Shown here: positions 8,480 to 11,821 of the stretch, piece by piece | Numbering within the stretch: position 1 is the first letter of the stretch | How the letters are laid out: every line of letters begins with the position of its first letter | Assembly (NCBI GenBank): GCA_040389905.1 | Contig: JAZJZK010000052.1 | Location: 1-64,000, forward strand | DNA: 64,000 bases | Source of the DNA: Gemmatimonadota bacterium | GTDB taxonomy: Bacteria > Gemmatimonadota > Gemmatimonadetes > Gemmatimonadales > Gemmatimonadaceae | Reading direction: 5' to 3' | Position numbers and translations under genes: made by a program | Notes under the pieces: model-generated | Told to the model about the DNA's origin: nothing | What the model saw: the letters and a program-made list of their open reading frames with translations, nothing else | Database searches by the model: none

Positions 8480-8576
8480 ACCTTGGAGCAGTGGTTGCGT
8501 TCACTACGTCGCCGACGCGCGACTCGTTTCATGAGCGCTGGGCAAAGCTATTTGACGGAGGAGCTAGGAGCTAGGA

Positions 8577-8599
8577 GGCAATAACATACTTGACGCAGG
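8577..8599 (+). repeat. left terminal inverted repeat (IRL)
   Basis: GGCAATAACATACTTGACGCAGG is the exact reverse complement of 11755-11777. Confidence 0.95.
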
Positions 8600-8618
8600 T
8601 GGCCTGTTAGCATACATT
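8590..8618 (+). promoter_or_regulatory. transposase promoter with -35 inside IRL; likely leaderless mRNA
   Basis: TTGACG-N17-TACATT, then 6 nt, then the ATG at 8625; no SD sequence. Confidence 0.65.
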
Positions 8619-8624
8619 CTCCGT

Positions 8625-9596
8625 ATGCTCAAACAACATGCGGCCCCGAACACCTTGACCGAAGCGATCTGCTACTTCTCGGACCCTGACGTCAGCTTCG
8701 CCTTTGTCGTCCAGATGCGCTGGCCGAACGGCGTGACGTGCCCGCGTTGTGACGCGGACAAGCCGTCGCTGATTCGGTCGCGTCGTATTTGGGAGTGCCG
8801 TGGCTGTCACAAGCAGTTCTCCGTAAAAGTCGGTACGATCTTCGAGGACAGCCCGCTTGGTCTGGACAAGTGGCTGCCCGCTGTGTGGCTGCTCGCTAAT
8901 GCCAAAAATGGAATCAGCAGCTACGAGTTGGCCCGCGCGTTGGGCGTGACCCAGAAGACCGCATGGTTCATGCTGTCGCGTATCCGCCTCGGAATGCAGG
9001 CGCAGAGCCAGACCAAGATGAGCGGCACCGTGGAAGCCGACGAGACCTATATCGGCGGCAAGCGCGGCAACATGCACCCGAAGCGAAAGGCAGCAGTCAA
9101 GCCCGGCAACATGCACATGGAAGCCGTCATGGGCATGCTGGAGCGGAAGCGCAGCGACAAGCACAGCACCGTCAAGCTGGCTCACATTCGGAGCACCAAG
9201 AAGGCCGAGCTTGGCGCGCAGATCGACGCGACGATCGAAGCCGGATCGAACGTCTACACGGACGCGCACCCAACCTACAAGCGCTTGGCCGCTGTGCAGT
9301 GGGGCGATAAGTACGCCCATGCGGCCGTAGACCACGCCATCCGGTACGTTGACGGTCAGGTCCACACGAACGGCCTTGAGAACTTCTGGAGCCTGCTCAA
9401 GCGCTCCATCAAGGGAACCTACGTTTCGGTTGATCCGTTCCACCTGTTCCGCTATCTGGACGAGCAGGCGTTCCGCTTCAATAACCGTGAGGAAAACGAC
9501 CTTGGCCGTTTCGTTGCGGTCCTGAAAGATGTCGTCGGCAAGCGGTTGACCTACGCTGAACTCATCAGCGCCGACATGCAGCCAGCCCGAACGTGA
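8625..9596 (+). CDS. IS1595-family DDE transposase
   Basis: RWPNG, Zn ribbon CPRC..CRGC, FSVKVGTIFE, GISSYELAR.LGVTQKTAWFML, VEADETYIGG, YTD, HTNGLENFWS.LKR, YLDEQAFRFN. Confidence 0.95.
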   Translation: MLKQHAAPNTLTEAICYFSDPDVSFAFVVQMRWPNGVTCPRCDADKPSLIRSRRIWECRGCHKQFSVKVGTIFEDSPLGLDKWLPAVWLLANAKNGISSYELARALGVTQKTAWFMLSRIRLGMQAQSQTKMSGTVEADETYIGGKRGNMHPKRKAAVKPGNMHMEAVMGMLERKRSDKHSTVKLAHIRSTKKAELGAQIDATIEAGSNVYTDAHPTYKRLAAVQWGDKYAHAAVDHAIRYVDGQVHTNGLENFWSLLKRSIKGTYVSVDPFHLFRYLDEQAFRFNNREENDLGRFVAVLKDVVGKRLTYAELISADMQPART

Positions 9597-9605
9597 GGTA
9601 GTCCG

Positions 9606-9794
9606 ATGCCCAAAGCGAAAGCGGGGGCCGAAACCGAACCGGAAAAGAAGGGGCGGAAAGACTCGGTGAGACCTCCGGCTGACTTGCCGGAGGGAACGCC
9701 GTTCGAGCGCATGGCCGAACTCACGCGACGGCTGCTCAACGTCCCCAAACAGGAGGCCGCTCCACCTGACCCGAAACGGAGTAGGCACGCCTAG
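9606..9794 (+). CDS. small basic protein immediately downstream of the transposase
   Basis: GAGGT RBS, 62 aa, FERMAELTRRLLNVPK; the stop overlaps the convergent CapRel stop. Confidence 0.6.
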   Translation: MPKAKAGAETEPEKKGRKDSVRPPADLPEGTPFERMAELTRRLLNVPKQEAAPPDPKRSRHA

Positions 9795-10870
9795 ATCGTC
9801 TCGCTGATGAGGTCTGTAAATATTTCTGTATCTGCGAAGTAGTTCGGGAACGCCGCTTCAAGATCGGCGAGCTTGTCGATTTCAACGAGCACCGTATCGA
9901 AGTCAGGGTTGTTGAGATGTTCCTTTTCGGCAATCCGATACCGCAGAACAGCCTTGCCGAAGTCCTCCGTTCCGAACCCCCACAGCCTTACGTCGAACTG
10001 TGCCAAGTCATACGCCAGCACGACATAGCGAAATGCTGTTTGCGACTCAATCAACTTTTGGTGCGTGACGTTATAAGCACCGAGCCGATTGACGACGTTG
10101 AGCCATGCGCGGAGCGTAAGAAACTCATCCGCAAACTGGATGCGATCCGACGGCACATCCGGTCCCATTGGCGTGCCGTCGACGTTTGCGAGCTTCGCTC
10201 CCGCAAGAACAAAGAAGCGCAGCCAGTCCGGATCGCCGAGTCCTGACTTGAGATCCTGACGGAGAAACGTGCCTGCGACCTCATTGGCCGTCGCCCATGC
10301 GTGCTGAATGCGTGTGCGAATCTGAAGTTCGATTGTTAGGCCATCAAGCTTGGGATCTTCAGTGTTCTCGCAGCACGAATAAACGAGATGAATAGACCGA
10401 TATCCGGACTCTTTCGGCTCCGTGACATAGTCTGTCGTCCGCAAATGGCGGAAGCCTGGCGTTTCTCCCGTCGCGAGTAAAATGTCCTTCAGGTGCTGCG
10501 CCTCTGCCCATGACCCAACGACGGCACGCAGGCCGCCGATATCCTGCATTTTCGAGAGCTTCATGTCTGGGTATCGGCCCAGTTTGCGAATCATGGTCGG
10601 GATGCGCTTTAGCCGGGCAACTACAAGACTGGAATGGTCCGCAGCACGCGCCCTTGGCTCCAAGATTTCGCGAAACTTTGCGATCACGGCCTGATGGGCA
10701 GTGCGCCAGCGCTCAACGATTCCATACGCCTCCAATTCCTCGTCGGAAACGGTCATCGGCTCGCAGAGAAGGCGACCGGCCCTATCGACAGCCTTTCGGC
10801 TTTGCCACGGCAGATTTCGGACTTCAGCCATCACATACTCTCGCACGCTGAGCGGGGGAGCGCCTAACAT
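9791..10870 (-). CDS. RelA/SpoT-type small alarmone synthetase, fused CapRel-like toxSAS (toxin plus C-terminal antitoxin domain)
   Basis: SRKAVDRAG, WRTAH, RLKRIPTMIRK, MQDIGGLR, SGYRSIH, IELQIRT.IQHAWA; C-terminal VLVEI..L.AAFPNYFADT. Start taken at 10870 (GGGAGG SD); 10885 and 10831 are alternatives. Confidence 0.85.
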   Translation of the reverse strand: MLGAPPLSVREYVMAEVRNLPWQSRKAVDRAGRLLCEPMTVSDEELEAYGIVERWRTAHQAVIAKFREILEPRARAADHSSLVVARLKRIPTMIRKLGRYPDMKLSKMQDIGGLRAVVGSWAEAQHLKDILLATGETPGFRHLRTTDYVTEPKESGYRSIHLVYSCCENTEDPKLDGLTIELQIRTRIQHAWATANEVAGTFLRQDLKSGLGDPDWLRFFVLAGAKLANVDGTPMGPDVPSDRIQFADEFLTLRAWLNVVNRLGAYNVTHQKLIESQTAFRYVVLAYDLAQFDVRLWGFGTEDFGKAVLRYRIAEKEHLNNPDFDTVLVEIDKLADLEAAFPNYFADTEIFTDLISETI

Positions 10871-10938
10871 GGTCCCCTCCCGCATGCTGCGTTAGGCGTC
10901 TTACCGAAGCGCTCTACTGCGTCCATGTTTCCGCGATC

Positions 10939-11712
10939 ATGACTACTTGGGCATCCAGCGGACAGATCAAGATCGACCGGGCCGCAGAACACGTCCACGA
11001 TCTCGCACGGCGCATTGACGCCTTCCGCAACGCCGACCCGTATGAAATTGTCCGCAATGATGATCCGGAAGGATGGAAAGGCACTGTCCTTACCATTCGC
11101 GTTCACCGCGACATTCCAACCGAGTGGAGCGCTATCGTCGCGGACGCCATCCACAACCTTGGTTGCGCCCTCGATCACCTTTGGAAGAATGCGACGGGGG
11201 CGAAGCCCGATAGTCGGAAGAATTACTTCCCCGCTACTACGACTGCCGATGAACTGAAAGCCACGCTGAGGCGAGAAAAAAAGAGCGCAGCGAATACGGC
11301 GCGCCAACTCCTCGATAGTCTCGACGCGTTGCGCGACAACAACCCGTTCTGGGCAATCAGGAAGTTCGACGATGCCGACAAGCACCACGCGATATCCTTG
11401 GTCGCGTGCCGCTTGCAGAGTTTCGCCGTTGATCTCACCCACATTGATGGCGAGCGTCTTGACGAGCCCAAGAGATTGGTCGTTGACCTTGACCCCAAGC
11501 CGGACCTCACTGTTGTCGAAGACGGCGCAGTACTCGCGCGACTCGCCAACACCCACGCGGAAATTGACATATACGACCATCTCGCCTTTGAGATAGCGTT
11601 CGGCAAAGGCGAGATTCTGGAGGGTAAGGCCGTCCTGCCAACGCTCGAGAGCCTCACGACAGCGGTCCAAATACTGGCTGGTGCGTTCCTCGCTGCTGGC
11701 CTCATTACCTGA
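10939..11712 (+). CDS. hypothetical passenger protein (possible HEPN-like fold)
   Basis: 257 aa; KIDRAAEHV, DAIHNLGCALDHL, YFP, DADKHH; divergent from CapRel and ends 42 nt before IRR. Confidence 0.75.
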   Translation: MTTWASSGQIKIDRAAEHVHDLARRIDAFRNADPYEIVRNDDPEGWKGTVLTIRVHRDIPTEWSAIVADAIHNLGCALDHLWKNATGAKPDSRKNYFPATTTADELKATLRREKKSAANTARQLLDSLDALRDNNPFWAIRKFDDADKHHAISLVACRLQSFAVDLTHIDGERLDEPKRLVVDLDPKPDLTVVEDGAVLARLANTHAEIDIYDHLAFEIAFGKGEILEGKAVLPTLESLTTAVQILAGAFLAAGLIT

Positions 11713-11754
11713 CACCCGACTGTCACTCAGAGGCAAAATGCACCTCCGGTGACG

Positions 11755-11777
11755 CCTGCGTCAAGTATGTTATTGCC
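11755..11777 (-). repeat. right terminal inverted repeat (IRR)
   Basis: CCTGCGTCAAGTATGTTATTGCC followed by the duplicated AGCTAGGA. Confidence 0.95.
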
Positions 11778-11821
11778 AGCTAGGAGCTAGTGGACAAGGC
11801 ACAGGGACAGGAACTCCCCGC

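Follow-up and report, generated by a model that had tools for sequence, protein, structure and literature searches.

The 64,000-nucleotide stretch analysed here (the window, to whose positions all coordinates refer) raises the question of what a compact insertion sequence (IS) at 8577-11777 is doing with a gene that resembles the fused CapRel toxin-antitoxins of phage defence. We consider it likely that this is an intact transporter IS of the IS1595 family, that it carries a fused CapRel in a swappable cargo slot, and that the CapRel protects the host by abortive infection. Element and toxin are both of known kinds; what is new is the recurrence of CapRel in IS1595 elements. We found no literature joining CapRel or toxSAS with IS1595, in a search that lay outside the supplementary genomic-context tables of the CapRel papers.

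That the locus is an intact, single-copy IS1595-family transporter element is confirmed by its ends and its transposase. The element is 3,201 bp long, and its terminal inverted repeats (IRs; left 8577-8599 on the plus strand, right 11755-11777 on the minus strand) are exact reverse complements over 23/23 bp and diverge from base 24. The sequence AGCTAGGA borders it on both sides (8569-8576 and 11778-11785, plus strand) as an exact 8-bp duplication. The target is a heptamer tandem repeat (AGCTAGG, AGCTAGG, AGCTAGT; window 8562-8576 plus 11778-11791), and removal of the element with one 8-mer restores the heptamer phase, which fits an 8-bp target duplication. The DDE transposase (323 aa, 8625-9596, plus strand) has a Zn ribbon (CPRC/CRGC) and the motifs DETY, TD, NGLENFW and YLDE; it scores 169.8 bits against NF033547 (cut-off 75), and both PF12762 (DDE_Tnp_IS1595) and PF12760 (Zn-ribbon) are above cut-off. 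The perfect repeats, the exact duplication and the uninterrupted transposase described in an initial annotation of this DNA were therefore all borne out. All 3.2 kb are likely mobilised together by the transposase, in which case the defence gene would pay for the element's keep.

In the likely source run, which is not independent, one contig covers 7800-12600 without any difference, at a depth given by one figure, 13.6; such a spanning contig indicates that the element is not a chimera of this assembly. No second copy, miniature inverted-repeat element or further IR match was found in the element's own genome (84.6% complete), nor any empty-site or circle joint in three DNA runs, just one of which (X1, possibly the source run itself) covers the element. 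The intergenic gap that it occupies is flanked by sdaA and by a CesT-like gene, which lies upstream of pspA. The empty site that the initial annotation proposed to look for is represented in congeners: at 16/19 of their loci (15/18 without L002 of the unpublished genome G012) both flanking genes enclose a gap of 119-289 bp with no IR. These congeners are other species, at ~80% identity, and the exact pre-insertion allele is not among them. Two of the remaining loci are cut off, and one (G022; L348:355-3216) has in the gap a 953-aa gene, not an IS. Presumably this gene is secreted peptidase-like; its presence indicates that the gap accepts other insertions.

The passenger at 9791-10870 (359 aa, minus strand) is, on well-supported sequence and model comparisons, a fused CapRel toxin-antitoxin. 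It starts at ATG 10870 with GGAGG upstream, in a frame that is open to 10885 and offers an alternative start at ATG 10831. Pfam finds RelA_SpoT only, and hydrolase, TGS and ACT domains gave no match at E<=0.1, which agrees with the annotated synthetase free of these three domains. The product scores 324 bits against PADLOC PDC-S33 over residues 26-363 (CapRel-SJ46 itself scores 290) and matches the Protein Data Bank (PDB) entries 7ZTB and 9ERV at full length with E 1.9e-32, versus 1e-10 for RelQ; RelQ and RelP match its synthetase core only. It shares 32% identity with CapRel-SJ46 across 94% of the length. Modelled with AlphaFold from 67 sequences (pLDDT 89.9), it aligns with 7ZTB at TM 0.82 over 352 columns, the housekeeping RelP/RelQ rows among those shown reaching at most 0.43, and contains a predicted C-terminal pseudo-zinc-finger domain (pseudo-ZFD; strands 282-288, 293-299 and 324-330, helix 301-317). 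Our trees are all quick trees, with CapRel-SJ46, Phrann gp29 and six other small alarmone synthetase (SAS) or RelA/SpoT homologue (RSH) sequences as references. The synthetase-domain tree (83 domains, 3 of 86 rows having been dropped as too short) places the product among CapRels, apart from the SAS of Bacillus, Listeria and Staphylococcus and from the long RSH of the host.

Single residues point the same way. In PMC9712102, R79, R116 and the G-loop Y155 of CapRel-SJ46 are catalytic or ATP-site residues, and its autoinhibitory interface consists of the YXXY motif with V338, L339, A341, A351 and A77. Here the catalytic and ATP-site residues are kept as R86, R115 and Y157, and on the interface V327, L328, A340 and Y344 are kept (V338, L339, A351 and Y355 in CapRel-SJ46). 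Y344 is the second tyrosine of YXXY, the one that matters most in the related antitoxin ATfaRel2, according to PMC11782079. The fused CapRel architecture proposed in the initial annotation thus withstood profile search, full-length structural match, modelling and comparison of the catalytic and ATP-site residues, and the profile and tree placements that it called for put the protein on the CapRel side, away from RelP/RelQ. Its xPNYF.DT motif is present (AAFPNYFADT), close to the C-terminus rather than ending the protein. If CapRel-SJ46 is a guide, the pseudo-ZFD would block the ATP site until bound by a phage protein, and the freed N-terminal domain would then pyrophosphorylate tRNA 3' ends, halting translation. 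The CapRel of this element likely kills phage-infected cells; we infer both the anti-phage activity and the expression of this copy by analogy.

The association of CapRel with IS1595 elements recurs. CapRel homologues occur in 25/400 genomes of the phylum; 20 of these loci were extended by ~6 kb on each side and 5 were checked within 1.5 kb. Three of the 25 (L098, L099 and L100) lie inside IS1595 elements that are bounded by IRs and by exact 8-bp duplications. An IS1595-borne CapRel was also found at one of 11 metagenome loci (L085; several of the contigs do not reach far enough for a decision) and one of 80 viral loci (L309), and at none of four plasmid loci. The earlier suggestion of a transposon spreading CapRel is in this way backed by five further elements bounded by IRs and target duplications. 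The six elements measure 2.3-3.4 kb, and the carriers share a layout of transposase, small open reading frame (ORF) and a convergent CapRel on the opposite strand. Their CapRels are pairwise 30-44% identical (60% for L099 versus L100) and are spread over three or more separate parts of the tree; a single clade is rejected for all six (approximately unbiased test, p-AU 2.7e-5) and for four of the six (p-AU 1.7e-5). A single clade is likewise rejected for five carrier transposases (p-AU 1e-63), and the transposase of L098 is sister to that of L052, whose cargo is an AAA ATPase-DUF3226 pair instead of CapRel. Since neither the CapRels nor the transposases form one clade, capture was repeated, and IS1595 elements have acquired CapRel in at least three separate lineages. 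It is likely that small IS1595 transposons spread phage defences. The transposase clade itself is rare (17/400 same-order genomes at E<=1e-70, with few candidates scored per genome), and 2/19 matches carry CapRel.

Some observations stand beside this count. In the synthetase-domain tree, end branches tend to be longer for the IS-borne CapRels (0.5-1.0 versus a median of 0.26). Four viral loci with pieces of IS1595-like transposase beside CapRel (L277, L280, L282 and L307) were not counted, as no convincing IR pair was found. CapRel is convergent there with short or distant IS1595-like Zn-ribbon genes, and these loci are possibly decayed carriers. At L098:4328-4525, outside the CapRel element, two tRNAs lie between two IS1595 transposases: a tRNA-Leu and one whose anticodon is TTA (stop-reading).

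The slot that holds CapRel here holds other genes elsewhere. The initial annotation had envisaged sister elements with other cargo in the genome and its relatives; the own genome gave no sister copy, and the relatives did. Searching for the exact 20-bp IR led to 38 loci, in which 14 distinct complete elements could be delimited, 11 of them with exact duplications. Starting from the transposase instead, 99 loci allowed 52 elements of 1.7-5.9 kb to be delimited; 38 of them have exact duplications, and three had already come up in the IR scan. CapRel is absent from all 52 (the two known genome carriers were retrieved apart from this set). We scanned 84 selected ORFs from the transposase-led elements and 27-34 from the IR-scan elements against Pfam and PADLOC, and recovered five methylase-nuclease pairs (type II restriction-modification, RM), two further methylases, seven DUF3800 hits, a PDC-M24 pair and a PDC-M38-like pair (both PADLOC), Panacea and PemK; most scanned ORFs had no match in either collection. 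No tRNA gene was found inside the 9 element loci scanned for such cargo. A family of ~280-320 aa recurs in L029/L252, L253, L254 and L260 and ends in an RN-x3-H-like motif, which we take to be HEPN-like; it has no Pfam or PADLOC match. At L244:1-2700 (G654:C71) two IS1595 elements stand in tandem, the second beginning right after the duplication of the first.

The IRs of these elements include a -35 box. The predicted promoter of the transposase (TTGACG-17-TACATT, 8590-8618) has its -35 inside the left IR, and an inward promoter-like site was found at the left IR in 41/49 delimited relatives and at the right end in 20/49, counts made without a shuffle control. Several facts weigh against a functional CapRel in this particular copy. 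In the five other carriers CapRel starts at most ~90 bp from the cargo-side IR, with a promoter-like site in 4/5 (7-10 of 12 positions), whereas here a 257-aa gene separates CapRel from the right IR. The inward site in that IR is weak (TTGACG-18-CATTTT, 8/12), and there is no other minus-strand promoter-like site of at least 8/12 within 10831-11400. Expression of CapRel is uncertain for these reasons together, and this is our main doubt on the copy. Three interface residues also depart from CapRel-SJ46 (A77 to V84, A341 to E330, Y352 to F341); among 120 homologues F341 is present in 21 and V84 in 5, and E330 is rarer than the five commonest residues. More generally, most CapRels are not IS-borne, by the counts given above, and CapRel is split in carrier L100, so that cargo can decay. 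With one copy only, current mobility is no more than possible: the 'recent and possibly active' insertion of the initial annotation has the intact ends in its favour, and they are its sole basis, the copy being single and no other IR match having appeared.

One may ask whether the passenger has fallen silent or is fading in this copy, with CapRel unexpressed at a distance from the end promoter and its altered interface perhaps tolerated for that reason. We regard this as unlikely, though it is the rival that survives best. The atypical position, the lack of a good promoter, the changes at V84, E330 and F341 and the split CapRel of L100 would all suit it, as would a feature of the neighbouring 257-aa gene, which has a G where 104/110 homologues have an R. 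However, the CapRel ORF is full length with all catalytic residues and a GGAGG before ATG 10870, and the FPNY (an FXXY) that stands for YXXY recurs in P0002 and P0011, which are close homologues. Many real promoters escape consensus scans, and the two homologues nearest to the 257-aa protein likewise lack the R, having an H.

A more improbable alternative is that CapRel serves the element rather than the cell, acting as a module for addiction or against competitors that is set off by other mobile elements or when the element itself is lost. Toxin-antitoxin (TA)- and RM-like genes can stabilise mobile DNA, and other cargo of the slot is of this sort (PemK, Panacea, the RM pairs). However, a fused toxin-antitoxin would have no separately decaying antitoxin, and the three fused CapRels tested in PMC9712102 protect against phages.

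The second passenger (257 aa, 10939-11712, plus strand) might be thought to form a two-gene system with CapRel, as second effector to its sensor or as antitoxin. The genes are adjacent and divergent within one element and share a palindrome between them, and the initial annotation had both spreading together. This view failed: each is found in other elements without the other, and we hold a joint system to be very improbable. The 257-aa family, with at least 120 homologues and members in 12/400 genomes of the phylum, is the sole or main cargo of five other elements (L150, L244, L193, L198 and L214), none with CapRel. No CapRel was found at any of 14 extended loci of the family, and tblastn of the protein on 36 other CapRel loci gave no match. 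The family is thus independent IS1595 cargo and not a CapRel partner. In L244 and L150 its gene directly follows the small ORF, which suggests that the ancestral layout was transposase, small ORF and 257-aa gene, and that CapRel later entered, in reverse orientation, between the small ORF and the 257-aa gene.

The protein belongs to an unnamed family: across 110 members, Pfam and PADLOC gave no family beyond single weak hits, and attempts at naming it led to unnamed Atlas clusters only and to one unnamed viral model at E 1e-7. In its model (pLDDT 89.1) a helical bundle, possibly HEPN-like, carries a beta insert. HEPN chains top both structural lists (4NQF, Z 8.8; 6M6W, Z 9.2, rmsd 3.6, 122 aligned), but unrelated bundles reach 8.7 in the wide search, and Foldseek against PDB gave no hit at E<=0.001. 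The family conserves K11, D-x-x-H-N-L-R-x-A-L-D-H and D-K-H. The canonical catalytic motif of HEPN RNases is R-x4-6-H; the consensus here is R-x-L-D-N-x-D-K-H with an invariant H149, and its spacing departs from that motif. An antisense ORF (10864-11736) was set aside, as the homologues belong to the plus-strand ORF. A second member of the family lies at a contig end of the same genome (G000:C54:64-798, L154); the 7 kb read there contain no IS1595 transposase.

Finally, a housekeeping ppGpp synthetase of RelP/RelQ type, for which the shared synthetase core and an NCBIfam YjbM match at 44.6 bits would speak, can be dismissed as barely credible: that score is far under the cut-off of 320, the protein has 359 aa versus about 200-240 for a single-domain synthetase, the full-length CapRel match takes in the antitoxin domain, the tree separates it from the Bacillus, Listeria and Staphylococcus SAS, only 25/400 phylum genomes carry a homologue, and the host has its own long RSH.

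We turn to the sites at which these elements land. Twenty distinct duplication-bearing elements from Gemmatimonadota genomes were used to count targets. CTAAC or GTTAG occurs at the target in 10/20, with a background of 0.16% of random sites in this genome, and a heptamer tandem repeat in 5/20, with a background of 0.2%. The latter include our element and the three closest transposases of that set; the relatives concerned are L241, L242, L243 and L255 (71-76% transposase identity for the closest). Three targets rebuild into full paired attC-like sites and several sit among many attC-like boxes. Insertions into an attC-like R box (CTAACAAG and similar) were seen in L100:6185-9149, L245, L246, L150:3988-6080, L053, L029, L052 and L098, several of them inside cassette arrays. 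This target preference is a strong lead and not a test, because the pattern was spotted first and counted afterwards, a single genome supplied the background, and the elements are relatives of one another. We found no literature joining IS1595 with attC targeting.

A pair of similar boxes lies inside the element, where GCCTAAC and GTTAGGC, 22 nt apart, form a 36-bp palindrome (10862-10897) between the divergent passengers, overlapping the CapRel start. It is one of 3 such pairs in the genome and may be an attC remnant or an operator. A regulatory hairpin over the CapRel start was not supported, its folding being no better than that of shuffles (z -0.2). Nor was an origin of CapRel as an integron cassette: the paired box is upstream only, with none downstream, and at 36 CapRel homologue loci an attC-like box is upstream in 1/36 and downstream in 0/36. 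No integron integrase was above cut-off in the own genome.

Both passengers were listed correctly in the initial annotation, which missed a third, small ORF between transposase and CapRel (62 aa, basic, 9606-9794, plus strand), a conserved backbone gene 3' of the transposase. Its stop overlaps the CapRel stop in CTAG. Similar micro-ORFs are present in 33/72 element rows (our element and three duplicate rows included), and family-profile searches gave no match. It is possibly a regulator of transposition. The predicted protein has an amphipathic core and a basic tail.

Fused CapRels are known from prophages and genomes; the six bounded elements show an autonomous vehicle of 2.3-3.4 kb by which they may reach distant phyla. 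As CapRel is an experimentally validated defence family that is found repeatedly in the slot, it supports the slot as a defence hotspot, and the unnamed passengers (the 257-aa family, DUF3800 and others) thereby become direct candidates for phage defence. We venture a broader reading, tentatively and as something short of probable: this IS1595 clade may be a minimal defence shuttle with a 1-kb backbone, a promoter-supplying right end, a swappable slot and safe-site landing, which has taken up CapRel on at least three occasions. The unnamed cargo of the clade, such as the HEPN-like 257-aa family and DUF3800, could then be a catalogue of undiscovered single-gene anti-phage systems in poorly studied soil and water phyla. 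Targeting of attC, if true, would place a DDE family among the few elements for which homing into integrons is known.

Four known systems help to place these findings. To the HEPN RNase toxins (HepT of MntA-HepT and relatives) the 257-aa protein may be linked by a helical bundle that aligns to HEPN chains and by a polar D-K-H at a helix end; it differs in its large beta insert, in lacking the canonical R-x4-6-H, an MNT partner and any Pfam or PADLOC family match, and helical bundles in general often reach a structural Z of this size. With the fused CapRel toxSAS (CapRel-SJ46, -Ebc and -Kp; 7ZTB, 9ERV; PDC-S33), as presented in PMC9712102, our passenger shares a single ORF, an N-terminal toxSYNTH domain and a C-terminal three-stranded pseudo-ZFD with terminal helices. 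It has FXXY for YXXY and two other altered interface residues, is borne by an insertion sequence rather than a prophage, and its host is likely a Gemmatimonadota. The transposon-like RM units of Xanthomonas (Furuta et al., 2010, PMC2853133) also have IRs and an 8-bp duplication around defence genes, and our sister elements carry type II RM pairs; the portion of that paper available to us describes RM genes only and mentions no transposase inside those units, whereas our element is autonomous and carries a toxSAS. The IS1595-family transporter IS (tIS), for which the TnCentral preprint (10.1101/2021.05.26.445724) gives a definition, have an IS1595 transposase, short terminal IRs, an 8-bp duplication and passengers between transposase and right end, as here. 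Our element differs from them in the conserved micro-ORF behind its transposase, the Gemmatimonadota elements in their apparent preference for attC boxes and heptamer repeats, and the cargo in being a validated anti-phage family that has been captured repeatedly.

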